A program made the translations under genes and the position numbers. A DNA stretch of 64,000 nucleotides. It comes from Proteobacteria bacterium UBA6156 (GTDB lineage: Bacteria > Pseudomonadota > Alphaproteobacteria > UBA2136 > UBA6156). Below, piece after piece: positions 6,725 through 35,079 of the stretch. How positions within the stretch are numbered: the stretch's first letter is position 1; every line of letters starts with the position of its first letter. The notes beneath the pieces are model-generated. The model did no database searches. It saw only the letters and a program-made list of their open reading frames with translations, and was not told the DNA's origin. The stretch spans positions 38,759-102,758 of the forward strand of contig DIUO01000036.1 of NCBI GenBank assembly GCA_002422365.1, given 5' to 3'.

Positions 6725-6729
6725 GCGCC

Positions 6730-10825: not shown

Positions 10826-12235
10826 TTAGAATAACTCCGCAAGCCGGGCATCAATCTGCCCGGCTTGCACATGGCTGTGGGCCGCCTGCTGGCGGGGGTC
10901 CATCACCACTTCGGGGGCATCGGCCAGGCTCGGCAGCGCTTGCCAGCGGCGCAGGGTTTCGGCATGGCGCGCGGGGTCGGGGTTCATTTTCAGCGTGGGG
11001 CCCCAGGCCTGCCCTTCCACCAGCAGCGTAAAACAGGCATTGCTGGCGTTTTGTCCATCGTGCTCGCGCGCCACCAATCCGGCTTCTTGCAACTGGTGGG
11101 CCAGGTGTGGCCAGGCCGGGTGGTGCAGGCCACCGTCGCTTTCCCACAGGTTCAGGGCCTGGCGCAGGGTGGGCTTCAGCCGCAGTGCCACCTGGCGCAT
11201 CAGTTCCTCTTGGCGCAGCCACACGCTGCCGTCGGCCATTTTCAGGCAGGTGGTTTCGGGGGTCAGGCTCGGCTGGGGTTCAAGCTCGGCCAGCAGGCTG
11301 GTCCAGTGCTCGGTTAGGTTATGGCGCAGGTCGTCCAGCTGTTCGGGGGTTATCTGGTCCACTTCCTGAACATTCAGCTGTTGCAGCTGGGCGTCGGTGC
11401 GCCACAGGTAATCCACAATCTCGCGGGCCAGTGGGCTGCTGCTCAGCGGCAATTGGTGGGGGGTGGCGTGGTAACGCAGCGCCACCAGCAGCGTGCGCTG
11501 CATGTCGCGGCCTTCAGGGGTTGTCTTCAGGTGCCGAAACGCCGGAAACGTCGAAAGCACAAAAGCGCTCATCCCCCCATGGGCCTGGCACCGCCGCCGG
11601 AAGGTCACCGTATCCCGCTGCCAGAACGACCAGAACGGCCGCGTAACCCGCTTTTCCTCATAGGCGTGCACCAGCGCCAGGTCTTTAGCCAGGGCGGCAA
11701 TGCGGTGCCAGGGGGTGGCGGCTGGCAGCTGGCGCATCATTTGCCAACGGGCTACGGCACGTTCATACAGGCTGGCAAACTCGCATCCCGGGCTTGCATG
11801 GTTGTGCTTGTTCTGCAGCGCAAGGTCTACCGGCCAGTGGCGGTAGCCTTGCAAAAAACCAATCAACTCCGCTTCCAGCGGGTGCAGGCCGGGCCAGTCC
11901 GGCGGGGCCACCATCTGGGGTAAAAATTTCGAAAGCGACAGCGGCAAAGGCACTTCCTGCCCCTTGGCATCAAAGGTCACAAACGCGGTACCATATTCAT
12001 CGGTCACTCCCGCTTCAAAGCCGGTGGCCAGGTTGCGGCGCAAGTTGCCCAGCAGGGCGGCGGCCCACACCATGCCAAAGCCTACCAAGGCACCACCACC
12101 CACCACCAGCAGGCCGCGCATATATTGGGGCGTATCAAACGCGTCGCTGGTTAAAACCGACCACACAACATGCAGTGCCCATAAAAACATCACTAAAAGA
12201 CTTAAAACCAGAACGGCGCGACCTTGGGGTGTCAT
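10826..12235 (-). CDS. hypothetical membrane protein (two N-terminal TM helices plus a large soluble domain); only sizeable minus-strand gene inside the locus
   Basis: ORF 10826..12310 (494 aa). Start proposed at MTPQGRAVLVL (12235). No HxH or Walker motifs seen. Confidence 0.5.
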   Translation of the reverse strand: MTPQGRAVLVLSLLVMFLWALHVVWSVLTSDAFDTPQYMRGLLVVGGGALVGFGMVWAAALLGNLRRNLATGFEAGVTDEYGTAFVTFDAKGQEVPLPLSLSKFLPQMVAPPDWPGLHPLEAELIGFLQGYRHWPVDLALQNKHNHASPGCEFASLYERAVARWQMMRQLPAATPWHRIAALAKDLALVHAYEEKRVTRPFWSFWQRDTVTFRRRCQAHGGMSAFVLSTFPAFRHLKTTPEGRDMQRTLLVALRYHATPHQLPLSSSPLAREIVDYLWRTDAQLQQLNVQEVDQITPEQLDDLRHNLTEHWTSLLAELEPQPSLTPETTCLKMADGSVWLRQEELMRQVALRLKPTLRQALNLWESDGGLHHPAWPHLAHQLQEAGLVAREHDGQNASNACFTLLVEGQAWGPTLKMNPDPARHAETLRRWQALPSLADAPEVVMDPRQQAAHSHVQAGQIDARLAELF

Positions 12236-12399
12236 AGCAGACTTTCCTTTGTAGGGGCGGGCCTTTCCACACATCTGCTGTCGCAGCGTGATGGTGTTTT
12301 GGTCACACACCAGTCATGAGATGCGGCAGGGCCTCTCCCTGACCGCCGTACAACTATGATAGCGTCACATCCAACAATCAACAGTCAAGCACGTCGGCC

Positions 12400-13746
12400 A
12401 TGCCCATGAAACGATTTTACAACCTACCGCAGCAAACCCGCACCAGCCCGCGTCGTCTTTCACGCGCCCTTTTGGCTGTGGCAATGGCAACTACGGTGCT
12501 TTCCACTCCCATGGCGGCGCCGCCTGCCTCTGTGCCGGCCCCCGTACCAGGTTACGTAGCGCCGGTCACCGGCGCCCCGGTCGCCCCTTATGTCGACGAC
12601 ACGCGCGGCGTCTACGTCCCCCCCCATCAGCAGTTGCGCCATAAAACCGAGTCCGAGCTTGCGGGCTGGGATACCGTCGTCGAAACCAACCGCCCCCTCT
12701 ATGCCCAAAACAACCCGGCAGGCGCGCCCTACCAAATGGCCCTGAACACCGTGGCTAACGGCGTGGCCGACACGGGCCGCGAACTCGACCGCATTGCCGC
12801 CGACCCCGGCCTGCTGCAAGGCGGCGCCGCCCGGCCGGATGCCGCCCTGTATGCCCAAGACGCCTACGCCGACACCACCGAAACCCAGCCCATGCATGGC
12901 CGCCAAATGGCCCAGGCTGCCCCGGCACGCTCGCTCGATGATTACCCCTCCCTGGCCACAGGCGGCCAGCCGCGCATGGCCCAGGCCCCGGCACCGATAA
13001 CCGACCTCGGTGCTGCCCGCATCGCTCCGCCATCTCCTCCCTTGGCGGCGCCCGTACCGCTGAGCGACGGCGGCATCGAATTGGCCATCGGCGGCACGAC
13101 CGCTCGTGGCGAGCTCGACCTCCAGAACGGCATCGTCCGCCTGAAGGAAGAACGCATTTCGGTGCGGCGTGCCATGCAGCGCATGCTCGACCAAGTGGGC
13201 GGCGCAGGCTGGACCGTGGTGTGGGACCTCGACGAGGTCAACGCCGGTCTGCCGGATATGGAAATCAGCATTTATGCCGAAGAGCCGTTTATTAAGGTCA
13301 TGAACGCGCTGCTCGCCCGGCTGCAAACCCGCAGCGGCCAGCCCATCCGCGTCATCAAATACGACAAAACGCAACGCCTGGTGGTCACCGACCGCACAGG
13401 CGGCGACGCCCGCAGCGCCAGCATTGGCGTCGGCGGGGCCACGGCAGGCCATGTTGCCATCACCGAAACCGTGCTGAAAGAAAGCACCGTCAGCATCCAT
13501 TTCGACGAAATTCCGCTGGTCGACGCCCTCGAGAACATCGTCAACCAGGCCGGTAAGGGCCAGTGGCGGCTGCGCATGTATGCCGGCACCGACCAAGTGC
13601 TCAAGCCCGCCCACGTCGAAGAACCGTTCGGGGTTGCGCTGGAGCGCATCCTGAAGGTCTTCAACCTGCGCTACGAAATTTTCCCCGGCGGCAAGCTGAT
13701 CGTCGTCACCAGTGGAAGCAGCTTTGGATTTAGAGGAGTAGAATAA
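12400..13746 (+). CDS. secreted protein with two STN/TcpQ-like beta-alpha domains (PilL/TcpQ-like secretin-associated candidate)
   Basis: 448 aa. N-terminal signal sequence (LLAVAMATTVLSTPMAAPPA), an Ala/Pro-rich linker, then two copies of the pattern W.V.W...EEPF..VM.ALL.....IRV........LVVTD. The pattern is shared with ORFs 24071..25720 and 25720..27255. Confidence 0.55.
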   Translation: MPMKRFYNLPQQTRTSPRRLSRALLAVAMATTVLSTPMAAPPASVPAPVPGYVAPVTGAPVAPYVDDTRGVYVPPHQQLRHKTESELAGWDTVVETNRPLYAQNNPAGAPYQMALNTVANGVADTGRELDRIAADPGLLQGGAARPDAALYAQDAYADTTETQPMHGRQMAQAAPARSLDDYPSLATGGQPRMAQAPAPITDLGAARIAPPSPPLAAPVPLSDGGIELAIGGTTARGELDLQNGIVRLKEERISVRRAMQRMLDQVGGAGWTVVWDLDEVNAGLPDMEISIYAEEPFIKVMNALLARLQTRSGQPIRVIKYDKTQRLVVTDRTGGDARSASIGVGGATAGHVAITETVLKESTVSIHFDEIPLVDALENIVNQAGKGQWRLRMYAGTDQVLKPAHVEEPFGVALERILKVFNLRYEIFPGGKLIVVTSGSSFGFRGVE

Positions 13747-13749
13747 ACG

Positions 13750-15690
13750 ATGAACAGCCGCACACCGCCCGCAAAGCATCTCTTGGCACGCACCTCGGCG
13801 TTGGTGGTGCTGGCCGCCACGCTGGCATCGTGCAATGGCGTGTCCTACACCCAGCGGCAGTCGCCCGCCAATCCGTATAAAGACTTCCGCGAAGAAAACC
13901 GCGCCAACGCCTCCGTCCTCGGCATGGGCGAACCCATCTCGTCCCGCCAGATGGCCGCCAACGCCACCATCACCTTAAGCGGCAACATGACGCTCTCCGA
14001 AGTCCTGCAACGCATGGCAGGCACTTATAATACCGCCATCCGCTGGGGCAACGGCGTGCGCCAAGACAAACGCAAGCAAATCATGCTCAACAAGCTGACC
14101 TTCGACGAAGCCCGCAACTATGTCGAAGATGTCTACGACATCCAGATTATTAAGGAAGGCGAACGCCGTCTGCTCATCCTGCCGTCCGCGTCCGAACCCC
14201 GCCTGGCGGCCTTCAGCCCCGGCAACAACGTCACGCTCTCCCAGGCGCTGCGTGGCCTGGCCGAACAATGCAATTACAACCTGGTGATCAACGAAAACCG
14301 CGAAAAACTGAACCAGATCCGCGTCACTGCCAACCTGCGCAACGTCACCTGCTTCGATGCCTTCGAGGCCATGCTCAACCCCCACGGCCTCAGCCTCGTG
14401 AACGCAGGCGACTACATGACCGTCGGCGGCCTGCCCCAACGCCAGTGGACGCTCAACCTCTACGAACCCAAACGCAGCGAAACGGTCGAAGTGAACTACT
14501 CCTCCGACTTCTCCCCCGCCACCGGAGACGACGAATCCAGCGCCAGCGGCGCCCAAACTGCCGGTGGCAGCACCAAGGTCAGCATCAGTTACGAGCGCGA
14601 CCTCTGGAAAGACCTCGAAGACGACCTGAAAGAACTGGTTTCCAACAATTGCATCGGCGCCCTGGATAGCGGCATGGCCGCCAGCGCAAGCTCGGCCAGC
14701 CTGCTTATGCCGCCCGAAGGCGGAACGGCACCCGCCGACCCCACTCTCATGCAGCCCACCGACAGCCAGCCCGTGGCCACCGACAGCGCTGCCACCAGCA
14801 CCCAATGCGGTTACGTGCGCATCAACAGCACCGTCGGCATGGTGCAAATGCGTGCCCCGCGTGCGGTGCTCGATGAAGCCGACGAAATCATCCAGCGCGT
14901 CCAAGACATCGCCAGCCGCCGCCTGCTGCTGGAAGCCCGCGTGCTGGCCGTCAGCCGCTCGCGCGACTTCGACCAGCAGGCCAACCTGCGCGTCGGCCGC
15001 ACCGGCAATGGCGCCACCACCTCCGCCAGCTTTAACGGCAGCGTAACGGCAGCCATCAGCAACGCTTTGGCCACCTTCAGCGGCGCCAACCTCAGCACTG
15101 TCGGCGGTGCCACCGTGCGTGCCGGCAATCTCGATGCCGTCATCGCCCTGCTGGAAAGCTACGGCACCACCTACGAGCTCATGCACCCGATGATGGAGCT
15201 GATGGACCGCCAACGCGCCACCCTGATCGATGGCCGTAACGAGAAATACTTCGTGGTCAACAACGACACCACCACCGACTCCGGCACCACCACCACCACC
15301 AGCGAGGTCACCGAGCGCAACCAGTTCCTGGGCCTGCAATTCTCGGCCACCGCGCAAGTGAGCGACAACCCCGACGAACCCCACACCGTCAGCCTGCAAA
15401 TCCCTATCACCTCGCTTGCCAAAACCATTAACATTCCCACCGGCATCAGCGGCACCATTGCCGGGGTGGCGCCTATCGCCAACACCCGCCTTATCGACCA
15501 AAAAGTGCGCATCCGCGATGGCGAAATCAAGGTCATCGGCGGCCTCACCAAAACCATCGCTATCGATACCGAATCCGGCGTGCCGCTCATCCGCGACATC
15601 CCCGCGCTGGGCAAGCTCGCCAATGAAGAGGCCATCCAGTACGAAAATGTCGAGTTTGTAATTTTGCTACAGGTGCGCCGCCTGTATTAG
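13750..15690 (+). CDS. secretin (GspD/PilQ/PilN family), lipoprotein form
   Basis: 646 aa. Lipobox LASC after the signal sequence. The C-terminal secretin domain carries the hallmark VPLIRDIPALGKL...ENVEFVILLQVRRLY. N-terminal N0/N1-like regions are present. Confidence 0.8.
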   Translation: MNSRTPPAKHLLARTSALVVLAATLASCNGVSYTQRQSPANPYKDFREENRANASVLGMGEPISSRQMAANATITLSGNMTLSEVLQRMAGTYNTAIRWGNGVRQDKRKQIMLNKLTFDEARNYVEDVYDIQIIKEGERRLLILPSASEPRLAAFSPGNNVTLSQALRGLAEQCNYNLVINENREKLNQIRVTANLRNVTCFDAFEAMLNPHGLSLVNAGDYMTVGGLPQRQWTLNLYEPKRSETVEVNYSSDFSPATGDDESSASGAQTAGGSTKVSISYERDLWKDLEDDLKELVSNNCIGALDSGMAASASSASLLMPPEGGTAPADPTLMQPTDSQPVATDSAATSTQCGYVRINSTVGMVQMRAPRAVLDEADEIIQRVQDIASRRLLLEARVLAVSRSRDFDQQANLRVGRTGNGATTSASFNGSVTAAISNALATFSGANLSTVGGATVRAGNLDAVIALLESYGTTYELMHPMMELMDRQRATLIDGRNEKYFVVNNDTTTDSGTTTTTSEVTERNQFLGLQFSATAQVSDNPDEPHTVSLQIPITSLAKTINIPTGISGTIAGVAPIANTRLIDQKVRIRDGEIKVIGGLTKTIAIDTESGVPLIRDIPALGKLANEEAIQYENVEFVILLQVRRLY

Positions 15691-15780
15691 GGCATCATGC
15701 CAGCTTCCCCTAGGCGAAGGGGGGGCGATTGAGGCAACATGCAGTCAGCGTCTGTGGTGTGCAGCAGGGGTCGGTAGGGC

Positions 15781-17724
15781 TTGGCCTGGCCGAGCCCCCG
15801 TGCACCGCAACCGCCGCCAACAGGAGGAACAACCATAACAACGCCTCTGCCCGGGCAAGTGCCCTTTTCGCCCTACGGCCCCGCGCCGCAGGACGAAGCA
15901 GCCTCGCCGTCATCGCCACCCCCGGCCATGGGGGCGCAAGGCATGGCAACACCTCCGGCGGCAGGGGTGCCTTTGCAGTTTGCCCCCACCGCACCTGTCG
16001 GCACCACCGAAGAACTCACCCCGCGCGAAGAGATGTACCAGGACATCCTGAAAATCCTGCACAATTCCACCGACCTCGGCATCGACCGTGTGGCCCACGG
16101 CCACCTGGAAAAAGCCATCGCCACCCCCGGCAGCAAGCAGCTGCTGGTGCGCGACCTCATCAACCAGAAAATCATCAACCGCGTGCAACTGGCGCGTGCC
16201 TTTGCCCGCCATAACCGCGCCCGCGAACTCCTCTCCATTCTCGACATCCCGCCCGAAGCCCAAGTGCTGCGGCTCGACCTCCAGCCCCGCCTGCGCAGCA
16301 TCCTGCGCAGCGAGCGCATTATTCCCATGTCCATCCGCAAGGAGGAAAACGGCACCGTCACCGACGTCCACCTCGCCCACGACAGCCCCCTGCGCGATCT
16401 CGTGCTCGAGGCCAACGTCCGCGAATTCTTCCCCCCCACCGCCAAGCTGCAATGGCACTTCTGCCTGCGCGAGGTTGCTGGTGCGTTCTGGATGGCCGGC
16501 GAGTCCGAGAGCATCGACAGCGACATGGAGGCCGAAGCCCTCCTCGACCGCATCATCACCAATGCCATCGACGCCCGCTCGTCGGATATTCACATCGACC
16601 CTTCCATCAAGGGCGAACCCCGCGCCATCATCAAATACCGCATCGATGGTTTCGTGCACCCGAAGGAGGTCATCACCACCGAGCAGCTGGAACGCCTGCG
16701 CGTGCGTATCGAAAACTTGGCCCGTATGCCCAAAGTCAACCTCAACTACGCCAACAAGGGTGCCTTCACCCGCTCGGGGTACGACTGGCGCGTGCAAATC
16801 CAGCCCCACGCCGGGCGCCTGGGCCCAGTGCCGCGCATCGTGCTGCGGCGCTTGCAGCCGGATGTCATGCCCCTCGAAGTGCTGGGCTACCCTGCCGACT
16901 TCATCGAAAAAATAAAAAGCGCCGCCAGCGCCCCCAACGGCGTCATTTTCTGGACCGGCCCCACCGGTTCCGGCAAAACCGAGGCGATTCACGCCGCTGT
17001 GGTCAGCGCCAACCCCATGGCCAAGGGCCTCAGTGTCCATACCATTGAAGACCCACCGGAAAAGCGCGTGCCCGGCTACGCCGTGCAAATGGAAATTGCC
17101 AGCGAGGACGAAAACCGCACCGGCCTGCAACTGCTCAAGTCGTCACTGCGTGCCGACCCCGACGTCGTCATCTTCGGCGAGGTCCGCGACAGCGAAATGG
17201 CCAAACTGGTGTTCGAAGCCGCCAACACCGGCCACTTGGTGTTCACCACCCTGCACACCAACACCGCGCTGGATGCCATCGCGCGCCTCGACGAAATGGG
17301 CGTCAGCGGCTTCCTGCTGTCCTACATACGCGGCATTGCCGCTCAGCGGCTGGTGCGCCGCCTCTGCGGCCATTGCAAAGTCACCATGGCCGAACCCGAC
17401 GAATACACCCGCTATGTCTTCGACCGCTACGGCGTGCCGCTCACCGGCGCCAACCTATTTGCCGCCAACCACGAGGGCTGCGCCAACTGCAACTACACCG
17501 GCTACTACGGGCGTATCGCCACCGCCGAGTGGCTCAAGCCCACCAAAGAAATTGTCGAGGCCAGCGCCGAGAAAAACTACGCTGACCTCGAAGACATGGC
17601 CAAGCGCGCGGGCTGGCAGCCCATGGGCCGCATGGGGGTGCTGCACGTCAAAAACGGCATCACTGACGCCGCCGAATTGTCCACCAAGATTCTCGAGCTC
17701 GCCGCCGAGACACTGACAGGATAA
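15781..17724 (+). CDS. type IV pilus/T2SS assembly ATPase (GspE/PilB/TcpT/PilQ(R64) family)
   Basis: 647 aa. Walker A GPTGSGKT, Asp box, His box, and a tetracysteine zinc motif (CGHCK...CANC). The Pro-rich N-terminal ~50 aa come from a TTG ORF start; the first ATG is at 15928, so the true start is uncertain. Confidence 0.9.
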   Translation: MAWPSPRAPQPPPTGGTTITTPLPGQVPFSPYGPAPQDEAASPSSPPPAMGAQGMATPPAAGVPLQFAPTAPVGTTEELTPREEMYQDILKILHNSTDLGIDRVAHGHLEKAIATPGSKQLLVRDLINQKIINRVQLARAFARHNRARELLSILDIPPEAQVLRLDLQPRLRSILRSERIIPMSIRKEENGTVTDVHLAHDSPLRDLVLEANVREFFPPTAKLQWHFCLREVAGAFWMAGESESIDSDMEAEALLDRIITNAIDARSSDIHIDPSIKGEPRAIIKYRIDGFVHPKEVITTEQLERLRVRIENLARMPKVNLNYANKGAFTRSGYDWRVQIQPHAGRLGPVPRIVLRRLQPDVMPLEVLGYPADFIEKIKSAASAPNGVIFWTGPTGSGKTEAIHAAVVSANPMAKGLSVHTIEDPPEKRVPGYAVQMEIASEDENRTGLQLLKSSLRADPDVVIFGEVRDSEMAKLVFEAANTGHLVFTTLHTNTALDAIARLDEMGVSGFLLSYIRGIAAQRLVRRLCGHCKVTMAEPDEYTRYVFDRYGVPLTGANLFAANHEGCANCNYTGYYGRIATAEWLKPTKEIVEASAEKNYADLEDMAKRAGWQPMGRMGVLHVKNGITDAAELSTKILELAAETLTG

Positions 17725-17728
17725 CGCC

Positions 17729-18817
17729 ATGGGTATCGAATTCGGCAAAGCCTCCCTCAACACAGCCGACAGGGTCGACTTCTTCAAAACCCTGTCCGGC
17801 TGGCTGAATGCCGGCGGCGGGCGCATGTCGGTGGCCGAGGCCGTGGCCAACACCACCAACGGCTTTAGCCAAGAGGAATACGCCACCCTCGCTCCGCAAA
17901 TGAACATGATCGAGCGTGAGGTCGCCGCAGGCCAAACCACGCTCTACCAAGCACTGGCCATGGCCAACATCGGCTTCAAACCGCAAGAGCTCGCCATTGT
18001 CGAAGCCGCCGAAAAAGGCAACCAGCTCCGCCAGGCCCTGCCGGCGCTGGTGGCGGCGCTGGAGGTTGAAAATGCCGGCCGCCGCGACCTCATGATGAAA
18101 ATGGCCGGGCCTCTGGTCATCGGCGTCATGCTCATTTTGCTCTCCATCGGCGTGCTGGTCATTATGCTGCCCATGGTTATCCAGCCGGTGCTCGACCGTA
18201 ACGCCGCCGCCCTCTACAAATTCCCCTTCATCCTCCGCTGGCTCTGGTATGCCTCGGTGTGGCTGCGGGCCAACCCGATGATCCCCACCGTGCTGGTCGG
18301 CGGCCTTATCACGTTGTTCATTTTGCGCAACACGCCGGTGTTGCAGCCCTATTGGCTGCGCTTCAGCATGTGGTGGGGGGTTACCCGCAAGCTCATCTTG
18401 GGGTTCAATTCCATGCTCACGGTGTTCTTCTTACCGGCGCTGGTGCGTTCCGGCATGCCCACCTATCAGGCGCTGGAGCAAATGGCTTACTGCGTCACCA
18501 ACCCGCTGCTGCGCAGCATGTTCCTTACCGCCGCCGAAGACCACCGCAACGGCCTGCGCATGAGCCAGGCGGTCGAAGGCATGCCCTTCAAAGCCTCGTT
18601 TTTCAACGCCATCACGGCCGGAGAATCCACCGGTGCCATTGCCGAGCGCATCGAAGACCTCCAACCGGCCTATAAACTGGAGCTCGAACGCTACATCCGC
18701 CAGGTTTCCGGCACGCTCAAGTTCATGGTCATGGCGGTGCTGCTCCCCATGTTCATTGTCAGCACCTACACCTCGCTGGTGGGGCCCATCTTCGCCCTCA
18801 TGGAGTATGGCCGTTAA
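17729..18817 (+). CDS. GspF/PilC/TcpE-family inner-membrane platform protein
   Basis: 362 aa. The GspF-family pattern shows two cytoplasmic helical domains and three TM segments. Confidence 0.85.
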   Translation: MGIEFGKASLNTADRVDFFKTLSGWLNAGGGRMSVAEAVANTTNGFSQEEYATLAPQMNMIEREVAAGQTTLYQALAMANIGFKPQELAIVEAAEKGNQLRQALPALVAALEVENAGRRDLMMKMAGPLVIGVMLILLSIGVLVIMLPMVIQPVLDRNAAALYKFPFILRWLWYASVWLRANPMIPTVLVGGLITLFILRNTPVLQPYWLRFSMWWGVTRKLILGFNSMLTVFFLPALVRSGMPTYQALEQMAYCVTNPLLRSMFLTAAEDHRNGLRMSQAVEGMPFKASFFNAITAGESTGAIAERIEDLQPAYKLELERYIRQVSGTLKFMVMAVLLPMFIVSTYTSLVGPIFALMEYGR

Positions 18818-18859
18818 CATGAAACACACGCAACACACGCCGCAATCCAGGGGTTTCCC

Positions 18860-20212
18860 ATGCCTTTAACCGTTCTCTCCCGTCGTTCTGTCGTCTACCG
18901 CGAAAGTGGCTCCGGCGAGGTCACCGTCCTGCTGGTGCCAGGGCGCGAGCAAGTCCAGGTCATCAAAGACCTCGCCGGTCTCGGCAAAACCGCCGTGCCC
19001 GCGCGCGAGGGTGCCACCAGCGCCAACGCGGTGCAAAGCAAGCAAGCGCCGCTCACCCGCGTGTTTGTTGGGCGCCGGTTTATCTACGGCACCCTGCCGA
19101 CCGAAATCTCCGACCTCCGCCAACCCGTCCGCGTCTGGCTGGCTGAAGATTTCGTCCCCGCCCAGTGCCAGGCCTTCTTCTTCATTTTCAGCACCGAGGT
19201 CGTCGTCCACGGCGTGCGCGAGCAAGACGACGAAGGCCAGCTCAACTGGCGCACCGCCCAGCTGTCGCTGTCCGAGGGCGATCCCATCAAGAGCATCATC
19301 GACGCCATCAGCGACTACGCCCTGGCCAACAGCACCGAAACACTCACCATCGCGGTGCAAAAGCTCGATCTCTACGAAAAAATGCAAGCGGGCCTGGCCA
19401 CCTACAGCATCAGCCCCATTCCGTTCAGCAAGCTCAAGCCGCAGCCGGGCCTCAAGCCGCTCTACCGCCACCGAGACTTCACCATTCTCTACCTCACCAT
19501 GGCGCTGTTCGGCCTCATCACCGTCATGGCCAGCGGGGGTTATATGCTCATGGCCCTGCTCGAGCGTAACCGGCTCGACGAAGAAGCCGCCAGCATCCGC
19601 CGCAACATCAATTCCATCAAGCTCAACCAGAACGTCGGGCAAATCGCCAACCCGCAAGAGCTGCTGCAACGCATGAACCGCGGCATCAACCAGCAGCCAT
19701 CCGCCATCATCCATGCCGCAGCCGAGGCTGCCGCCGAACTCGGCAGCCTGGAAAACCTGCAAGTGGTGTTCGAAGGCAGCAATTTCGCAGGCCTGGCGCT
19801 GGATGCCATCGAAGCCGGCCAGCTCGGTGCCGTGGCCCAAATTACCGAAATGAAAGACGAACTGCTGCTCGACCAGGAGCAAACCGCCAGCGACAGCGTC
19901 GCCCTCAAGCCCTGGATCCGCTCCTTCGTGCGCGGCGGCAGCGTTGGCCTGCAAGGGCAGGTGGGTATGGTGCTGCAAATCGACCAACCCCCCGGAACCG
20001 AACCTCCAGTCACCGAGCCCCCAGTCGCCGAACCGCCCGTCACCGAAGCGCCTCCGGCCCCAGTCGCGGTTACCGAGCCCGTGCCCGCCGCCGCACCCAT
20101 ATCCGCCGACGGCGCCACGGTCAGCGGCACCGCCGAGGTCTCGTCCACCGCGCCCCTGCCGGAAGGTGACCAACCGGAAGCCCCAACACCGAACGAGGAG
20201 GCCCCGCAATGA
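18860..20212 (+). CDS. bitopic assembly protein (GspL/PilM-PilN-like architecture) with C-terminal TEPPV repeat tail
   Basis: 450 aa. An ~210-aa cytoplasmic domain, a single TM (FTILYLTMALFGLITVMASGGYMLMAL), a periplasmic domain, and a C-terminal Pro-rich repeat tail. ATGA overlap with the next gene. Confidence 0.5.
   Translation: MPLTVLSRRSVVYRESGSGEVTVLLVPGREQVQVIKDLAGLGKTAVPAREGATSANAVQSKQAPLTRVFVGRRFIYGTLPTEISDLRQPVRVWLAEDFVPAQCQAFFFIFSTEVVVHGVREQDDEGQLNWRTAQLSLSEGDPIKSIIDAISDYALANSTETLTIAVQKLDLYEKMQAGLATYSISPIPFSKLKPQPGLKPLYRHRDFTILYLTMALFGLITVMASGGYMLMALLERNRLDEEAASIRRNINSIKLNQNVGQIANPQELLQRMNRGINQQPSAIIHAAAEAAAELGSLENLQVVFEGSNFAGLALDAIEAGQLGAVAQITEMKDELLLDQEQTASDSVALKPWIRSFVRGGSVGLQGQVGMVLQIDQPPGTEPPVTEPPVAEPPVTEAPPAPVAVTEPVPAAAPISADGATVSGTAEVSSTAPLPEGDQPEAPTPNEEAPQ
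19996..20055 (+). repeat. in-frame 15-bp tandem repeats encoding (T/A)EPPV x4
   Basis: The units accgaacctccagtc / accgagcccccagtc / gccgaaccgcccgtc / accgaagcgcctccg are directly visible. Confidence 0.7.
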
Positions 20213-20781
20213 ACCGCAGCACCTACCGGAATATCATGATCGCCGTGCTGCTGATCTGTTTCGGCGTGGCCTATTATCTCTTCACCACCTCGCAAACCTA
20301 CCAGGTGCAAATCCAGCAGCGCACCAACGAGATCATCCGCCTCAATCAGGAATTTGAAAACGCCCAGAACCTGAACGTCGCACTCACCGAGCTCGACAAC
20401 CTCACCATTACCGAGCAAACCGCCACCCAGCTCGACATCCTGCGCCACCTGGGGCTCGAAAACAGCGAACTCACCTTCCAGCTGGAGGCCCGCGACGTGC
20501 AGGCCATCGGCCCGTCGTCGCTCTATGTCCATACCGTCGCCATATCCGGCAATATGCCCTATGCCGAGGCTCTCGCCCTCTGCGACCGGCTGCAGAACAC
20601 CAAGAAAATCGTCATCACCGCCATCGAGGTGCGTGGTCCGCCCTCCGGCACCACCCAGGATACCGTCGATCTGCGCGTCGTCGGCCTCATCTATGGGTTA
20701 GAAAAAGTCATTCCGCCGCTCGATATGCTGCCATTGCCCGGCAACACCGAAACCGCCCCCTCGCAAGGAGACCCCGCATGA
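20209..20781 (+). CDS. bitopic inner-membrane protein, GspM/PilO-like candidate
   Basis: 190 aa with an N-terminal TM (IMIAVLLICFGVAYYLF) followed by a coiled-coil/periplasmic domain. ATGA overlaps at both ends. Confidence 0.45.
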   Translation: MNRSTYRNIMIAVLLICFGVAYYLFTTSQTYQVQIQQRTNEIIRLNQEFENAQNLNVALTELDNLTITEQTATQLDILRHLGLENSELTFQLEARDVQAIGPSSLYVHTVAISGNMPYAEALALCDRLQNTKKIVITAIEVRGPPSGTTQDTVDLRVVGLIYGLEKVIPPLDMLPLPGNTETAPSQGDPA

Positions 20782-21359
20782 AGCTGATGCCCGCCTTTAT
20801 CCTGGTGCTGGCGCTGGTGGCTGCCCCGGCCGCCCACGCGCAAGAGGGCCTGCTCTGGAAAGTCAACAGCCGCTACCAGGCTACCGTTGTGCCGCCTTAT
20901 ATGGGCCAGCCCAACCCCTTCGCGGGCGGGGGAGAGGTTAAGGTCTCCGAAACCGGCGTGCTGGAAGAAGAGGCCCAAGCCCTGCGCGAGCGTCAGCAAA
21001 CCATCGACGAAGCCACCCAGCTCCTCAATTCCTCCCGGGCGTTCGAACCCTATCTCGACGGCATGGCCGTCGGCGGAGTGGTCGAAGGCGCACAAGGCCG
21101 CCGCGTGCTTATCGGCAACAACTGGGTGGGCGTCGGCATGGAGCTCAACGTCCGCCTCAGCATCTCCCCCCAAGCGCAAGAGGCTCTCGCCCGCATCGAG
21201 CCCCTCGACAGCGAAACGGCCCTCAGCATGCGCCGCTCGCTCGACGAACGCCGCGCCCGGGTGCCCACCACCCGCCTGAAGTTGCTCGAAATCGGCGAAA
21301 AAAACCTGGTATTCCAAGGCGATAATGGACGCCACACCTTGCCGATGCACTTCCATTAA
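20778..21359 (+). CDS. periplasmic protein with cleavable signal peptide (PilP/GspC-like candidate)
   Basis: 193 aa. Signal sequence MKLMPAFILVLALVAAPAAHA. Its position after the GspL/GspM-like genes suggests the PilP/GspC role. Confidence 0.4.
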   Translation: MKLMPAFILVLALVAAPAAHAQEGLLWKVNSRYQATVVPPYMGQPNPFAGGGEVKVSETGVLEEEAQALRERQQTIDEATQLLNSSRAFEPYLDGMAVGGVVEGAQGRRVLIGNNWVGVGMELNVRLSISPQAQEALARIEPLDSETALSMRRSLDERRARVPTTRLKLLEIGEKNLVFQGDNGRHTLPMHFH

Positions 21360-21447
21360 CCGGCGGAGAGGTGCCATTGCCCCTGTCAGGCGCAGGCGCT
21401 GGCACTCCACCCTATAAGACAAGACAGAAAGGATACCACCGGCCGAG

Positions 21448-22413
21448 ATGCAAGCGCTGTTTCTCATATCGTTGTTTACCTTCGTCATCGCGCTCATGAC
21501 CAGTTTCATCGTGTCCGGAACCTTCAACGCCGCCCAGCTCACCAAGCAACGCCTCGACGACACTTTCCGTTATTTCGAATCCATGGCCGAAGTCATCCGT
21601 GCCGAAGTCACGCAAGAGAACATGCACGGCAATCCCGGCACTTATGCAACTATTCCCCAATATATCAGCAATATGCCCACGGTAGCCGCCATGTCCAGCG
21701 GCATTTATGGCAACGCCGCCACCGACGCCTGGGGCCGCGAGATCACCGGCGCCATGCTCACCCGCTACATGCGGTTCAGCGCCCCGTCCGACAGCAACCA
21801 GGTGCTCAGCGTCCCCGTAACCGCCTTCGCCTTTGTCTCCGGCGGGCCCGATGGCCAGGTCCAAACCACCCTGCCGTCCGCCCCCACCCAACTCTCCGAT
21901 ATCCTCAACATTGCCGCCCCCACCGACGCTCAGGGCAACCCGACCACCGACGACATCGTCTACACCTTCGACAACCGCCGCGAGATGATGCTGATCATCG
22001 AAGACATCAAAGGCCACGCCTCAAAAGTCGGTGTCACCGCCCTTAAAAAATTCCAGGCCGATATGGCCACCTTCCGCGACCAACAACTGGCCGACTACCG
22101 CGCCGCCATTGTGGCGGGCCAAACCGTCTCACCGCCCAGCATGGATTTCTCCAACAACCCCAACGCCCCGCGCCTTCCGGCCGTCGATGTCAGCAGCACC
22201 CAGGCCCTGCTCGGTATTTTCGAAGATGTTGAAGCCATCGAACGCATCCTGCCCAGCGGCGGCAGGCTGGTGTTATCGTCCAACACGCCGAATATGGCCA
22301 ACCCCAACCTCGTCATTACCGTCCGCAACCATACCACCAACCCCACACCGCTGGGCCCGGGGGCCAGTTTTCTCTACACCCTCATCATTCAACCCGACAA
22401 AGACATCAATTAA
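21448..22413 (+). CDS. membrane-anchored protein with pilin-like hydrophobic N-terminus (atypical; possible minor pilin)
   Basis: 321 aa. The N-terminus MQALFLISLFTFVIALMTSFIVSGTF is hydrophobic but lacks the G/F/E5 prepilin signature. It lies directly upstream of the bona fide prepilin gene. Confidence 0.4.
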   Translation: MQALFLISLFTFVIALMTSFIVSGTFNAAQLTKQRLDDTFRYFESMAEVIRAEVTQENMHGNPGTYATIPQYISNMPTVAAMSSGIYGNAATDAWGREITGAMLTRYMRFSAPSDSNQVLSVPVTAFAFVSGGPDGQVQTTLPSAPTQLSDILNIAAPTDAQGNPTTDDIVYTFDNRREMMLIIEDIKGHASKVGVTALKKFQADMATFRDQQLADYRAAIVAGQTVSPPSMDFSNNPNAPRLPAVDVSSTQALLGIFEDVEAIERILPSGGRLVLSSNTPNMANPNLVITVRNHTTNPTPLGPGASFLYTLIIQPDKDIN

Positions 22414-22426
22414 CGGAGACCACCTC

Positions 22427-23587
22427 ATGACACGCACCCGCATCCTTCCCACTCTTCGCAGCAACAAAGGCTTCTCGCTGATCGAAATGGTCATCACCGT
22501 CGCGGTGCTCGCCATTCTGGTCGGTATTACCACCCCCTCCATCTACGAATTCATCCGCATGCGCGACAAACAGAACGAAGAAATCGCCCAAATGCAGGTG
22601 CGCAAAGCGCTCGAGGCCTATATCGCCGATGTCGGCGAAGCCCCCAGCGACACCTCCACCTCGCCCTTCTGGTACGAGGCTCTCGCCGGTTACACCAGCC
22701 TTTCGCAAAACGAAATCGCCAACGATGTCTGGGACAACCCCCGCACCTACATCATGTACCGCGACGCCAACCGCGGCATCTACGGCGTCAGCGTCACCGT
22801 CAGTTACGTCACCCTGCACAGTATGGGCCCCGACGGCCAGGCCGACAACCAGGAAGACCAGAACGGCACCACCGTCACCGTCAACGGTGTTGCACTCACC
22901 TCGGCGGCGGGCGGTTCGGTGTTCAACGGTAGCACCGCTGCCGACTGGTGGAAAAACAAGTCCGACCCCGCCCAGGCCTTTGCCGACGTGCGCGGTGCCG
23001 ACGACGACGTGATGATGCGCTACACCAACTACGACGACGTGCGCATCCGCTACCAAACCACCAGCGAACGCATCCGCGCCGTCGGTGATGCCCTCGAGAC
23101 GTTTGCCCGCACGCAATATGCGGCTCACATCAGTGAATGTATCGCAGTGACCACCTCCACAACAAAGTGTACGGGTAACGGCAACCCGAACAGCGGAATC
23201 CCTGTTGCCGCCATTTATTATCCAAGATCCATCCCCATAAGCGGCAGTTCCGATACGGCTCGATATTATTATTCCGAATACGTCCCGGCGACCAATTTCG
23301 TGCCGTCAACGGCGGCGACGGTGAACAACACCAGCACCGATGCCAATCGGCGCGAGGATATGATAGACCTTATGCGCATGTTGGGCTTACCGGCAGATTA
23401 TTGCTGTTCGGCTTTGGAACTGGGCACCGACAGCAAACCTAAGCCATTCTACTACTTCAGCAACCCCCGCGTTCGGCTGGCTTCGGGTTGCAGTTCCAGC
23501 CGTCCCACCGGTTCCGAACCCAAACTCCCGGCGCGCATAACCACCGGTAACTTTGCCGACAGCAGCAGCAACCGCACCTGCGGTTAA
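22427..23587 (+). CDS. type IVb prepilin (class III signal peptide), large 386-aa pilin/minor pilin
   Basis: Internal ATG of ORF 22031..23587. A 15-aa basic leader MTRTRILPTLRSNKG is followed by FSLIEMVITVAVLAILVGI (Gly-1, Phe+1, Glu+5, N-methyl-type helix). A Cys pair lies in the C-terminal region. Confidence 0.8.
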   Translation: MTRTRILPTLRSNKGFSLIEMVITVAVLAILVGITTPSIYEFIRMRDKQNEEIAQMQVRKALEAYIADVGEAPSDTSTSPFWYEALAGYTSLSQNEIANDVWDNPRTYIMYRDANRGIYGVSVTVSYVTLHSMGPDGQADNQEDQNGTTVTVNGVALTSAAGGSVFNGSTAADWWKNKSDPAQAFADVRGADDDVMMRYTNYDDVRIRYQTTSERIRAVGDALETFARTQYAAHISECIAVTTSTTKCTGNGNPNSGIPVAAIYYPRSIPISGSSDTARYYYSEYVPATNFVPSTAATVNNTSTDANRREDMIDLMRMLGLPADYCCSALELGTDSKPKPFYYFSNPRVRLASGCSSSRPTGSEPKLPARITTGNFADSSSNRTCG

Positions 23588-23605
23588 GCGGCAGGGGCGG
23601 GGCCT

Positions 23606-23965
23606 ATGCTCACCGAGACACTCGCCTTCTACCCGGCGGCAGCCAAGGCCATTGCCCTGCATTGGCCTTGGTTCTGGCCGTTATGGGGCGGGGTCATGGG
23701 TGCGGTGCTGGGGTCGTTTCTCAACTGTGCCCGCTACCGCGTGCCGCGCGGCATTTCGTTGCGCCGCCCCCCCAGCCATTGCCCGGCCTGCAAAACGGTG
23801 CTGGGCGTGCCCGACCTCGTGCCCGTCCTCAGCTACCTGGCCCTGCGTGGCCGCTGCCGCCATTGCCGGGCACCCATCGGCCGCACCAGCCTGTGGCTGG
23901 AGGTCGCGCTGTTTACCGGCGGCTACCTGCTCACAGCCCTGTTCCAGGCTTGGCTGCTGGCCTAA
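23606..23965 (+). CDS. prepilin peptidase N-terminal zinc-ribbon domain only (TM1-CxxC...CxxC-TM2); catalytic A24 domain absent
   Basis: 119 aa. The pattern GSFLN..R....SHCPACKTVL...LVPVLSYLALRGRCRHCRAPI is typical of the PilD/TcpJ N-domain. The ORF stops at 23965 and the next clear gene starts in another frame. Confidence 0.55.
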   Translation: MLTETLAFYPAAAKAIALHWPWFWPLWGGVMGAVLGSFLNCARYRVPRGISLRRPPSHCPACKTVLGVPDLVPVLSYLALRGRCRHCRAPIGRTSLWLEVALFTGGYLLTALFQAWLLA

Positions 23966-24070
23966 GCTCTGGGGGCGGTGCCGAATTCCCACAGCCCGCC
24001 GCGCCAAAACCGCCTTTCCGCCCGCACCGCCTTAACAAAGCCCGCTGCACACGGCACACTTGCATCCAGC

Positions 24071-25720
24071 ATGCTGCCTGTCCGCGCCCGTTCTCGTACC
24101 GCCCTTGGCCTCACCTTGGTCGGCTTGGCTGTGGCCGCGCCCGTGCAGGCCCCCGTGCAGGCACAGGTTGCCTGGCAGAACGTGGCCGCCGCCCAAAGCA
24201 CCGCCGCTTACGCCCCCCTGCAAACGCCCGTGGTGCAAAAAGGCACGGTGTTGTGGCGCCGTTTGGGCAACGAATCCGAGCGCACCCCCACTCCCGCCGT
24301 CAGCGACGAAATCGAACGCCTCCAGCAGGCGCTGCAAGCCACCTCCCAGCAGCTGGCGGGGCTAGAGCAAAAAATCGACAGCACCGCCGACCTCCGCACC
24401 CAAACTGCCGCCACCGTCACCAATGTCACCTCTCTGGCGCAAGAGAGCATCCGCGCCATGGAACGCATGGCCGAGCAAACCGCCGCCACGACCGACCTCA
24501 AACTCTCCAAGGCCCAGCTGGAAAACCGGCTCGCCGTTGTCGAAGAAGCCCGCCTGGCCGCCAAAGACGCCGAAGACCGCGCCCGAGCCTACACCGGCGC
24601 CCAAATTGCCGAACTGCGCAACCTCGCCCAGACCGAAACCGCCAACGTCGCCGCCGCCCTGCGCATTTATGCCGACCTCCAGCTGGCGCAGGCCCAAGCC
24701 ACAACCTCCGCCACCTTGGCCAACCTCGCCCAGGCCACCCGCCAGTCGGTCACCGACCTCGACCAACGCACCAACCAGCGCATGGGCGTGCTCTGGCAGG
24801 CCGCCAACATCCAGGCGGAAAAACTGGCAAACGAGAAAGCCGCCGCCGTGGCCGCCAGCCTCGCCGCACTCCAGCAGCAAACCGCCGCCGACAAACTCGA
24901 ACCCGCGCAAATCCGCGCCATTGCCGAGCAAACCGTGGCCAACTCCGCGCCAGAGTTCCGCGCCCTCGCCCTTCAAACGCTTAAAGATGGCCAAGATTAC
25001 ATCCGCAGCGTCGCCCGCAGTGCGGTGCAAGATGCCGACCCCGGCATGACCGCCGCCCTGGCCAACGCCGCGCGCGATGTCATCACCAAAGACGACAAAG
25101 TCGTCTTCGCCATCCGCAAAGCGGTGGCGGAAGAACTGCAAGGCCTGGCCACCGGGGCCACCGCCACCACCACACCCGACGGCCGCACGGTGCTGGGGCC
25201 CGACCACGGCAGTGGCACACCCGAGGTCGAGCTCGATCCCAACCGCCTGCGCATCGCCCAGCTGTTGGCGCCGGAAGGCGGACTCGCCCCGGACGCCGCC
25301 CTCACTCCCGCCCAACTGGCGGCCCTCAGCCCCGCCGCAGGCCCGGCGCAAGGCCATACAGCGGTTGGCGGCCAGCAGGCCTGGTCGGCGCAGGGCACCA
25401 GCCTGTTGCGCCCGCGCCCGCGCAGCAGCTGGATGGACCTGCGCCAATACAAAGTCGTGCTCCACCAAGACAACCAGACGCTGGAAGAGCTGCTCGCCGA
25501 CATCCTCAAGCGGGCTGAACCCTTTACCGGCCCCTGGCAGGTGCGCTGGAAGATCACCGAACCCAACCGCGACCTCATGCAAGAACGCTTCAGCCTCGAT
25601 GCCGAAGCCCCGTTCGAAGAGTTCATCAGCTATCTTGCGCAATATATTGTCAACGATAGAGGCGTTAAACTCAGCGTAAGCCTGTTCGACAGCGAACGGA
25701 TTATTGTAATCTCCGATTAA
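24071..25720 (+). CDS. secreted coiled-coil protein with C-terminal STN/TcpQ-like domain
   Basis: ORF 23978..25720. The ATG at 24071 gives the signal sequence MLPVRARSRTALGLTLVGLAVAAPVQA. A long Ala/Gln-rich coiled-coil region follows. The C-terminus (LEELLADILKRAEPFTGPWQVRWKI...IIVISD) is paralogous to the C-termini of ORFs 12400 and 25720. Confidence 0.55.
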   Translation: MLPVRARSRTALGLTLVGLAVAAPVQAPVQAQVAWQNVAAAQSTAAYAPLQTPVVQKGTVLWRRLGNESERTPTPAVSDEIERLQQALQATSQQLAGLEQKIDSTADLRTQTAATVTNVTSLAQESIRAMERMAEQTAATTDLKLSKAQLENRLAVVEEARLAAKDAEDRARAYTGAQIAELRNLAQTETANVAAALRIYADLQLAQAQATTSATLANLAQATRQSVTDLDQRTNQRMGVLWQAANIQAEKLANEKAAAVAASLAALQQQTAADKLEPAQIRAIAEQTVANSAPEFRALALQTLKDGQDYIRSVARSAVQDADPGMTAALANAARDVITKDDKVVFAIRKAVAEELQGLATGATATTTPDGRTVLGPDHGSGTPEVELDPNRLRIAQLLAPEGGLAPDAALTPAQLAALSPAAGPAQGHTAVGGQQAWSAQGTSLLRPRPRSSWMDLRQYKVVLHQDNQTLEELLADILKRAEPFTGPWQVRWKITEPNRDLMQERFSLDAEAPFEEFISYLAQYIVNDRGVKLSVSLFDSERIIVISD

Positions 25721-27329: not shown

Positions 27330-27701
27330 ATGAATCAACGTACACTTCTCTTCAGCGCCGCCGCCGTGGCTGTCATGGCCCTCGCCGTCGCCAACCCCGC
27401 TTTTGCTCAGTCCGGTGGTGAAGCAGCTACAGCAGGGGCTGCTGCTGTCGATACACTTGTTGGTGCCATTACCGGTAACATCGGTTTGCTCATCGGTTTG
27501 GCCATTACTGTGGCGGGCCTCTGGGTCTGGATCATCGGTCAGAAAACCGGCGCTGGCCTCACTATGGTCATCGGTGGTGTACTCATCACCATGGCTCCGG
27601 GTTTGTTCAAGGGCGTCCGCGATATGGCCGTCGGTGTGGTAGGTCAATTCAGCGGATCAACAGTCTATGATGTTGACACCGCACGAGGTACGACTCGTTA
27701 A
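27330..27701 (+). CDS. VirB2/TraA/TrbC-like conjugative pilin precursor, copy 1
   Basis: 123 aa. RBS aaggag 8 nt upstream. Signal sequence ending AFA, then two hydrophobic helices separated by a short GQKTG loop. Confidence 0.6.
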   Translation: MNQRTLLFSAAAVAVMALAVANPAFAQSGGEAATAGAAAVDTLVGAITGNIGLLIGLAITVAGLWVWIIGQKTGAGLTMVIGGVLITMAPGLFKGVRDMAVGVVGQFSGSTVYDVDTARGTTR

Positions 27702-27708
27702 TCCAAGT

Positions 27709-28032
27709 ATGAACCTTCTCGGCAAAACCCTGGCAGTATGTGCGGCACTCCTTCTGAGTGCCGCTTCTGCCTATGCTGCCGAGACTTCCGACGTTGGTAA
27801 AGTCGAAGTAGAACTGCTGGTCAACATCTTCACCGGCAACATCGGCCTCGTTATTGGCTTCATCGTCACCATCATGGGCGTGTTTATGTTCATCAAGGGC
27901 GACAGCGGCGGTGCTGTCTACGTCGTCGTGCTGGGTGTGCTCATTACCATGCTTCCAGGCATTTACAATGGTTTAAGGCTTATTTTGTGCCCCATTGCCG
28001 AATCCCTCGGCGGCCAGTGTGGTGGCGGCTAA
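27709..28032 (+). CDS. VirB2/TraA/TrbC-like conjugative pilin precursor, copy 2
   Basis: 107 aa. Signal sequence ending AYA, two hydrophobic helices separated by KGDSGG, and a C-terminal Cys pair (CPIAESLGGQC). Same architecture as the upstream paralog. Confidence 0.6.
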   Translation: MNLLGKTLAVCAALLLSAASAYAAETSDVGKVEVELLVNIFTGNIGLVIGFIVTIMGVFMFIKGDSGGAVYVVVLGVLITMLPGIYNGLRLILCPIAESLGGQCGGG

Positions 28033-28036
28033 CGCC

Positions 28037-28306
28037 ATGCAAATGCGCGCCGTCCCCCGGAATATCGACAAACCCAACCGCACGCCGGAATACGCCGTAT
28101 CCTTCCTCTCCACTTACTACCTCACCCTATTTATCCTCAGCAAACCCCTTGTAGCTTTGTTGGCAGGTGCTCTTGCCACCTATGTTATGTATAAACTCAC
28201 GCTGGATAAACCCGAAGGCCTCGCCATGCGCTTGGCCTACCGCCACGTCAAGTTCGGCAAAATGCGCCCGGGGCCCAAGCACGCCCCCAAGCTGGAAGTC
28301 TCCTAG
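28037..28306 (+). CDS. small single-TM protein, TraL/VirB3-like by size and position
   Basis: 89 aa (F TraL is 91 aa), one TM. It sits immediately after the pilin genes, as in the F tra order traA-traL-traE-traK-traB. Confidence 0.45.
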   Translation: MQMRAVPRNIDKPNRTPEYAVSFLSTYYLTLFILSKPLVALLAGALATYVMYKLTLDKPEGLAMRLAYRHVKFGKMRPGPKHAPKLEVS

Positions 28307-28434
28307 ACGTCTCCTAACCGCAGCGCTGCCGCAAGCCTGCCACATGCAGGCGCACAAGCTGCCTGTTTTCACACCATCTCTCTCCCCAAGCCACCCAAAA
28401 GCGGGTAATCTTGCGGGCAAGGAGAAGAATATCC

Positions 28435-29091: not shown

Positions 29092-29112
29092 GCTCAATTA
29101 AGGAGACCCCAC

Positions 29113-35039: not shown

Positions 35040-35079
35040 CACTTGTCAAATGGCCTTTCCCGCACCAAACTTTAAGAAG

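Follow-up and report, generated by a model that had tools for sequence, protein, structure and literature searches.

The stretch analysed here (the window) comprises 64,000 nucleotides of contig DIUO01000036.1 from Proteobacteria bacterium UBA6156. Judged by gene content, homologies and motifs, its positions 12400-27255 (+ strand) encode a complete machine of the type IV filament (T4F) superfamily, and the Pfam and NCBIfam matches of the core domains (secretin, ATPase, platform, prepilin) are highly significant. The module sits inside a divergent F-like type IV secretion system (T4SS) cluster with a type IV coupling protein (T4CP), TraF, TrbC pilins and TraL/E/B/C. We lean, if only slightly, towards the reading that the filament core descends from the side of the superfamily that holds type II secretion systems (T2SS), type IVa pili (T4aP) and the mannose-sensitive haemagglutinin (MSH) pilus, and not from the type IVb pilus (T4bP), and that it represents a previously unclassified kind of machine whose pilus serves the T4SS.

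A sequence-only reading of positions 12400-23965 had described a type IV pilus/T2SS-like module, and the Pfam/NCBIfam matches of the secretin, T2SSE, T2SSF and N_methyl domains bear this out. All genes in this interval lie on the + strand and have the sizes given there. The lipoprotein secretin with its lipobox, the GspE-family ATPase with a tetra-Cys site, the GspF platform, the ATGA overlaps at 20209 and 20778 with the bitopic and periplasmic topologies of the proteins concerned, and the 386-aa prepilin with its 15-aa basic leader and G/F/E5 signature likewise stood up to the searches reported below. However, the secretin had been placed first, a position that belongs to a 448-aa TcpQ-like protein, and the T4SS genes that flank the module on both sides had not been mentioned. 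The module also extends past 23965 to 27255, which adds two TcpQ-like proteins.

The filament module and its core components

The module comprises the following genes (proteins without an established name are called by their length in amino acids):

12400..13746 (+), p448, TcpQ-like periplasmic protein of 448 aa with two TcpQ-like domains; directly upstream of the secretin gene and found in all loci
13750..15690 (+), lipoprotein secretin, 646 aa (Pfam Secretin E=1.7e-19, STN E=7e-9)
15943..17724 (+), extension ATPase of the GspE/PilB type, 593 aa (T2SSE E=2.6e-68)
17729..18817 (+), inner-membrane platform of the GspF/PilC type, 362 aa (T2SSF, two repeats, E=4.9e-24)
18860..20212 (+), p450, bitopic protein of 450 aa with a transmembrane (TM) segment at residues 207-225
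20209..20781 (+), p190, bitopic protein of 190 aa with an N-terminal TM segment at residues 9-27; gene ATGA-coupled to that of p450
20778..21359 (+), p193, secreted periplasmic protein of 193 aa whose signal peptide ends in AHA before Q; gene ATGA-coupled
21448..22413 (+), p321, leaderless pilin-like paralogue of p386, 321 aa, starting MQALF...
22427..23587 (+), p386, prepilin of 386 aa with a 15-aa basic leader cut between G and FSLIE (N_methyl E=6.7e-07)
23606..23965 (+), A24_N-only protein of 119 aa, the N-terminal Zn-finger/TM part of a prepilin peptidase (A24_N_bact E=9.9e-26)
23978..25720 (+), p580, secreted coiled-coil protein of 580 aa with a C-terminal TcpQ-like domain; kept downstream of A24_N in distant loci
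25720..27255 (+), p511, lipoprotein (LLAGC) of 511 aa with a coiled coil and a C-terminal TcpQ-like domain

When species-representative genomes were scanned, 31 loci were obtained; by tblastn, synteny from the TraF-like gene through the module is kept in these species loci, with secretin identity as low as 42%. The conserved order begins with the genes for the TraF-like protein, a small protein, the coupling protein, a lipoprotein, two small proteins and a 494-aa protein (- strand). It continues with those for the TcpQ-like protein, secretin, ATPase, platform, p450, p190, p193, p321, prepilin, A24_N, p580 and p511. More than 146 secretin homologues with 47-100% identity were found, all in metagenome-assembled genomes (MAGs) and on contigs of up to 1.1 Mb; these MAGs carry the label Alphaproteobacteria or Proteobacteria, in a few cases obviously a wrong one. 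Genes identical to those of the window occur on Logan metagenomic contigs. In PLSDB, megablast with the module returned nothing, and a protein search with the secretin gave one irrelevant match.

The lipobox at the secretin N-terminus reads L-A-S-C, and its Cys28 is invariant in 21 homologues. The best NCBIfam model was MshL (E=4e-34), with 118 bits against a cut-off of 250. Using hhalign, the secretin matched GspD at 94.1%, an Oceanithermus secretin at 92.6%, BfpB at 75.8% and PilN at 30.8%, the last over an alignment of 32 columns only. The neighbouring p448 scored below the Pfam cut-off for TcpQ (E=2.6e-4, 21.5 bits, cut-off 27), and this match recurs in 14/22 orthologues with a best E of 1.9e-5. 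Alignment revealed a TcpQ-like C-terminal domain of ~90 aa common to p448, p580 and p511. A profile search of PDB sequences with p448 was negative, and hhalign found no match to R64 PilL. Given its place next to the secretin, p448 is a candidate secretin partner. The start of the p511 gene overlaps the stop of the p580 gene by 1 bp.

The open reading frame of the ATPase opens at 15781, and the start at 15943 is that of the gene call on the identical metagenomic contigs. Walker A is conserved, and the tetra-Cys motif CGHC...CANC is present in every clade member examined, a trait that does not discriminate between classes, as IncI PilQ carries one too. Pfam did not detect the T2SSE_N (MshEN) domain in the window ATPase. 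Compared with solved structures, the ATPase scored highest against PilF and PilB of T4aP (190 and 175 bits), followed by GspE (157) and BfpD (111), while the NCBIfam models of GspE and PilB scored equally at ~225 bits each, far under their cut-offs. Among plasmid proteins, the best matches were an Oceanithermus GspE/PulE protein (37% identity) and EtpE (34%); identity to IncI PilQ was about 30%, across 61% of the query.

In order to place the ATPase, we used a neighbour-joining tree over 443 columns with HofB, GspE, BfpD, BfpF, IncI PilQ and the Oceanithermus and P. aeruginosa plasmid ATPases as references. The window clade was monophyletic (bootstrap 100%) and grouped with HofB, GspE and Oceanithermus in 65% of the replicates versus 6% with PilQ and BfpD; the T4a/T2SS references formed a group by themselves, with the clade excluded, in 80%. 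The clade thus forms a long branch of its own on the side of T4a/T2SS, beside and not inside GspE. For the platform, GspF was the best NCBIfam model.

More distant relatives differ around these genes. Between secretin and ATPase, they have an additional gene of 208-225 aa without a Pfam match (locus L008 12037-12714; L009 11877-12503; L042 1704-2369; L043 2968-3630), and the ATPases of some have long N-terminal extensions (L009, 852 aa; L042, 1007 aa). The subclade of the window has neither the extra gene nor the long extension.

Pilin-like and accessory proteins

The leader of p386 reads MTRTRILPTLRSNKG and is followed by FSLIEM, with G15, F16 and E20 invariant in 48 homologues. Over the whole prepilin family, leader length varies between 8 and 25 aa and F+1 is invariant. 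Type IVb pilins, for comparison, have a long leader, a mature N-terminus that is usually not Phe, and the T4b pilin fold. Against the GspG model TIGR01710, p386 gave E=3.4e-8 (33.6 bits, cut-off 88.85), and the family shows the GspG hallmark DxWGxPRxY...SxGPxG. By hhalign, it aligns with the entire E. coli GspG (96.6%) and matches the PpdD helix (96.3%), with no alignment to the T4b pilins PilS, BfpA and PilV (1.5%, 23% and 0.9%). We describe p386 as a GspG-like head with a Cys-containing extension of ~240 aa. Its AlphaFold2 (AF2) model is confident (predicted local distance difference test, pLDDT, 90; predicted template modelling score, pTM, 0.80) and predicts an alpha1 helix of 52 residues and a head made of a beta-sheet, along with another long helix with the Cys-containing extension. 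A Foldseek search of the PDB with this model gave no significant match, only a faint one to GspG.

The upstream paralogue p321 matches the prepilin family at 97.9% (hhalign, E=3.8e-13) and has the DxWG...SxGPD motif in common with it, but lacks both G-1 and E5. Its MQA start is kept in 16/17 orthologues and is the first possible one: an in-frame TAA precedes it by 11 codons, and the interval offers no other start codon. A tip or first-subunit role of an E5-less subunit is established for GspK, and such a role would fit p321 since it lacks E5. Only one class III signal peptide was found in the 64-kb window; some distant loci have two.

In the stand-alone A24_N protein, CxxC...CxxC is invariant and two TM segments are present, as seen in 17 orthologues of 107-174 aa. 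When 1.84 billion representatives were searched with it, the best 37 clusters were all 98-175 aa long, and full-length peptidases ranked only below these. Queries with BfpP, GspO and PilU matched only this N-terminal part; the A24 catalytic (aspartyl-protease) domain was not found in the window or in ~40 loci. Prepilin peptidase is mandatory in the published T4bP model, and MSH loci likewise go without one (PMC6668835); TXSScan allows it to be a loner. A pseudogene was considered for the A24_N gene and rejected, as the protein is conserved and its nearest representative clusters are all short. The N-terminal domain of PilD has been tied to N-methylation in established work, and we infer that the A24_N protein may be a stand-alone N-methyltransferase or pilin handler.

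Between the platform and the pilin-like genes lie the genes of p450, p190 and p193, which overlap at their junctions in most of the ~23 orthologous loci (orthologue coordinates). The AF2 model of p450, built on 8 sequences, has an overall pLDDT of 54, with ~70-84 for residues 90-200. In this low-confidence model, residues 90-200 form a beta-beta-beta-alpha-beta-alpha unit resembling RNaseH/ASKHA, followed by a long TM helix, which suggests a layout of cytoplasmic RNaseH/ASKHA-like domain, TM segment, periplasmic alpha/beta domain and Pro-rich tail. Foldseek with this model returned weak, generic RNaseH-fold matches only. Neither hhalign nor a PDB profile search matched p450 to GspL, R64 PilO2 or a PDB entry. 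No homologue was found for p190 among PDB profiles or by hhalign against R64 PilP and GspM, or for p193 in the PDB profile search. By its architecture, p450 is compatible with a role like that of GspL/PilM-N, a compatibility that proves nothing; p190 would be GspM/PilO-like by topology and p193 GspC/PilP-like by position.

The proline-rich repeat tail at the p450 C-terminus (19990-20209; PPGTEPPVTEPPVAEPPVTEAPPAPVAV...) varies in length among orthologues. In one database search it swamped the word filter, and 7 p450 homologues were returned.

Type of filament system and its possible role

In the published phylogeny (Denise et al. 2019, PMC6668835), T4bP branch off at the base and T4aP gave rise to MSH and T2SS; divergent "generic" T4F systems are common (PMC6668835). 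The assignment of the module to type IVb (Tcp/Bfp/R64) in the sequence-only reading finds no support in any core component, since ATPase, secretin and prepilin are all nearer to T2SS/T4aP references. As for the pattern it had named as pointing to a canonical T2SS instead, pilins with a GspG-like head are present, but the ATPase lies beside and not inside GspE. In the window, no PilT-type ATPase and no PilM/N/O/P domain match was found, and the genes form a single compact locus, unlike a T4aP; despite this, the best solved relatives of the ATPase are PilF and PilB.

The first alternative is a reduced, atypical T2SS, in which a short GspG-like periplasmic pseudopilus pushes folded proteins and the T4SS linkage reflects co-regulation only. 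It is strictly correct that no classical operon shares the gene order, but secretin, ATPase and platform do follow the gspD-E-F order of the E. coli K-12 T2SS (gspC-O). The two systems also have in common a tetra-Cys GspE-like ATPase, a GspF-like platform, a GspG-like head with the DxWG...SxGPDG motif in both pilin-like proteins and a peptidase-related gene at the operon end. Among the NCBIfam models, those of GspF, GspG and GspE rank first or close to first, and no retraction ATPase is present. As a lead only, the T2SS of Micavibrio aeruginosavorus has been reported without GspC, G, H and K, in a genome paper that also reports "no T4SS" (PMC3189940); a cluster of the kind seen in the window could go unnoticed behind such an annotation. 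On the other hand, the module has no GspH/I/J/K equivalents, its single class III signal peptide leaves no room for them in the window, and GspC, L and M are not detectable. All core scores lie far under the equivalog cut-offs, which marks the proteins as homologues and not orthologues, and the ATPase is not nested in GspE. Pseudopilins of 321-386 aa, 2-3 times larger than those of T2SS, with large extra domains and one of them leaderless, are unlike any T2SS piston. Of GspO/PilD, only the N-terminal domain is encoded, a TcpQ-like protein adjoins the secretin, which is a lipoprotein, and the strict clade-wide insertion in a T4SS cluster would go unexplained. We therefore consider a reduced T2SS unlikely.

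A genuine T4bP of the R64 thin pilus, Tcp or Bfp family, with diverged components, is an improbable second alternative. It draws on a lipoprotein secretin with an invariant Cys, a TcpQ-like protein directly upstream of it like PilL in R64, the 15-residue leader, a compact locus beside conjugation genes as in IncI plasmids, and a large (~400-aa) pilin at the operon end, similar in size to PilV, TcpB and CofB. The R64 IncI1 thin pilus (PilL-PilV), with which the PAPI-1/ICEclc-type pilL-pilM2 pili are grouped for this comparison, probably also resembles the module in serving cell-cell contact for a T4SS. Yet the ATPase and pilin of the module are not of the T4b lineage, and the secretin does not appear to be: the ATPase prefers the T4a/T2SS references in the tree and PilF over BfpD in bits, the pilin profile is that of GspG with F+1 invariant, and the secretin aligns with PilN over a short segment only. 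There is no match to R64 PilO2, PilP or PilL and no PilO, PilP or PilM homologue in the module. Its accessory block follows, instead of preceding, the ATPase-platform pair. The module contains no full peptidase, lytic transglycosylase or shufflon, and the catalytic peptidase domain that the T4bP model demands is absent from the window and ~40 loci. Finally, the window cluster is chromosomal and syntenic across the whole lineage, whereas that of R64 is plasmid-borne. The type IVb reading is borne out in part only: the T4b-like traits of the module (lipoprotein secretin, TcpQ-like neighbour, compact locus and linkage to conjugation genes) are organisational.

A pilus for DNA uptake or handling of the competence type, working with the neighbouring coupling protein and UvrD-like helicase, seems highly doubtful. 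T4aP-like machines and secretins have an established role in DNA uptake in other bacteria. In this cluster, a T4CP and a UvrD-like helicase are present, no relaxase is recognisable, and pilin and platform show weak NCBIfam matches of the ComG type. However, the ComG matches reflect the generic N-terminal helix, the cluster has no ComEA, ComEC or DprA genes, and two TrbC-type pilins together with TraL, E, B and C point to a complete T4SS of the export type. An MSH-type pilus (Vibrio mshI-Q) is hardly credible: MshL is the best secretin profile, the locus shares the absence of a prepilin peptidase and the module lies on the T4aP-derived side, but the MshL score is under half its cut-off with other scores also well below theirs, the ATPase shows no T2SSE_N (MshEN), the MshM-type AAA protein and MshN are not in the locus although mshM is mandatory along with mshA, mshE, mshG and mshL (Denise et al. 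2019, PMC6668835), and gene order and pilin set differ.

Several points also weigh against an unclassified, T4SS-serving machine from the T2SS/T4aP side. The ATPase tree has seven references and moderate support (65%) for the relevant grouping. The GspL/M/C-like roles of p450, p190 and p193 follow from topology and order, with negative profile comparisons and a poor p450 model. No pilin of the usual size (about 15-20 kDa) is encoded in the locus, and a fibre of ~40-kDa subunits may be too wide for the secretin; p386 and p321 could therefore be minor or tip pilins, and the major pilin may be encoded elsewhere. The functional coupling of pilus and T4SS is read from their linkage. No relaxase was recognised, and the substrate of the T4SS may be DNA or protein. 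The vertical inheritance described below is derived from synteny and flanks and not from a species-tree comparison.

If the favoured descent from the T2SS/T4aP side holds, the machine might work as follows. The self-lipidated secretin would form the outer-membrane pore, its insertion probably helped by the adjacent p448. The Zn-binding GspE/PilB-type ATPase would drive the GspF platform, and p450, p190 and p193 would form an envelope-spanning alignment subcomplex joining the inner-membrane motor to the secretin. An unlinked prepilin peptidase would cut p386 between G15 and F16, and the product would polymerise via its GspG-like head. Without E5, p321 would need no processing and could be the first (tip or priming) subunit, on which ATPase and platform would polymerise processed p386. 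The A24_N protein would supply the N-methylation or pilin-handling half of PilD, and p580 and p511 may link the machine to the envelope or to the core of the T4SS. Given that every genome examined has the module within its T4SS cluster, we take the fibre to provide target-cell contact. Most likely it is a pilus for contact or adhesion, acting together with the T4SS and bringing it to the target cell. In function it would be analogous to the conjugative pili of R64 and PAPI-1, and evolutionarily independent of them.

A bolder proposal, which we put forward only tentatively, is that the module represents a distinct, undescribed T4F family that co-evolved with a relaxase-less F-like T4SS as one contact-dependent apparatus in an uncultured, Alphaproteobacteria-labelled MAG lineage, which may be epibiotic or predatory. 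If this is true, assembly would be primed by a pilin with neither leader nor E5, which would bypass prepilin peptidase, and the activities of PilD would be split, with the stand-alone A24_N as pilin N-methyltransferase or handler. While the machine belongs to a known superfamily, we did not find its combination of features in the literature searched: a core of the T2SS/T4a type organised in a T4b-like way and embedded in a chromosomal T4SS throughout the clade, together with a pilin paralogue that has no leader, an A24_N protein that stands alone and several orphan accessory families.

To our knowledge, conjugation-supporting T4F machines have so far been type IVb pili on plasmids and integrative and conjugative elements (ICEs). 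Here, a machine from the T2SS/T4aP side would occupy the same position inside a chromosomal T4SS, and if confirmed, the partnership of pilus and T4SS arose more than once. A natural leaderless pilin bears on filament priming, and a separated PilD N-domain on the role of that domain itself. The five or more conserved accessory proteins with no detectable homologues represent new protein families, and the cluster offers a concrete candidate for cell-cell interaction in this uncultured lineage.

The T4SS surroundings and their inheritance

The following features surround the module:

5238-6293 (+), TraF-like thioredoxin-fold protein (Pfam TraF, Thioredoxin)
6730-8142 (+), SXT-TraD-like coupling protein, T4CP (TraG-D_C, TrwB; TIGR03743 E=8e-26)
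10826..12310 (-), conserved 494-aa membrane protein, in all loci, with no Pfam match
27336..43760 (+), downstream T4SS genes: two TrbC/VirB2 pilins, TraL-like, TraE-like, SLT/VirB1, UvrD-like helicase, unknowns, TraB/VirB10 and TraC/VirB4

The upstream T4SS genes (5238..8142, +), with a gene for a small membrane protein between those of the TraF-like and coupling proteins, are syntenic in most loci. Downstream, TraC/VirB4 has its best match among F-type proteins. In the distant genomes L042 and L043, genes for a TrbC/VirB2 pilin, a TraE/K-like protein, SLT and a UvrD-like helicase follow the module in the order of the window.

Since synteny extends over 31 species-level MAGs between housekeeping genes, the ~42-kb T4SS and T4F cluster (5238-47506) is probably a chromosomal, largely vertically inherited lineage trait and not a recent ICE. 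The upstream flank encodes a HemN-like enzyme and RNase PH, and the downstream flank glycosyltransferases, RmlA/B, Nth, a porin, ABC-F, SCO1, flagellin, FliF and FliG. MAGs in which the secretin shares 74-76% identity have a FliG at least 90% identical to that of the window. The window contains no tRNA, and no integrase or relaxase domain was found in any open reading frame scanned; together with the clade-wide synteny and the housekeeping flanks, this led us to reject an ICE. G+C content is 54-58% in the first 10 kb compared to 60-68% across the T4SS/T4F cluster, and GC skew is strongly negative over the whole + strand gene array.

The C-terminal ~250 residues of the 494-aa protein match an "HD domain-containing protein" of the P. 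aeruginosa megaplasmid pPUV-16 (NZ_MT732194.1) at 99.1% (hhalign, E=1e-18). Two N-terminal TM segments stand where the plasmid protein has its HD domain. On pPUV-16, this homologue lies between a P-loop ATPase gene, which it adjoins, and a T4P-like cluster, upstream of the pilus genes; the ATPase of the T4P-like cluster is 35% identical to that of the module, and the prepilins are of the GFTLIE type; in contrast to the module, the plasmid pilins are small and radical-SAM genes follow the cluster. We rejected pPUV-16 as a full homologue of the cluster, as only the ATPase and the C-terminal domain of the 494-aa protein match and the other proteins have no detectable homology. A further position recorded for the 494-aa protein family is L045 1286-2779 (-).

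Among the remaining T4SS genes, the tandem TrbC/VirB2-type pilin genes (27336-27701 and 27667-28032) overlap by 35 bp, and a TraX acetylase is encoded beside the TrbC/VirB2 pilin in L042. The UvrD-like helicase gene (30705-32522) is followed by one for an 801-aa helix-turn-helix protein (32634-35039). A conserved 310-aa lipoprotein (LLAGGC) with no family match is encoded between coupling protein and module (8510-9442), and large conserved orphan proteins of the T4SS part at 34951-36888, 37010-39190 and 43898-46498. In the downstream flank, the flagellin (58234-60468, -; 744 aa), whose gene adjoins fliF and fliG, combines normal N- and C-terminal domains with a central insert of ~500 aa.

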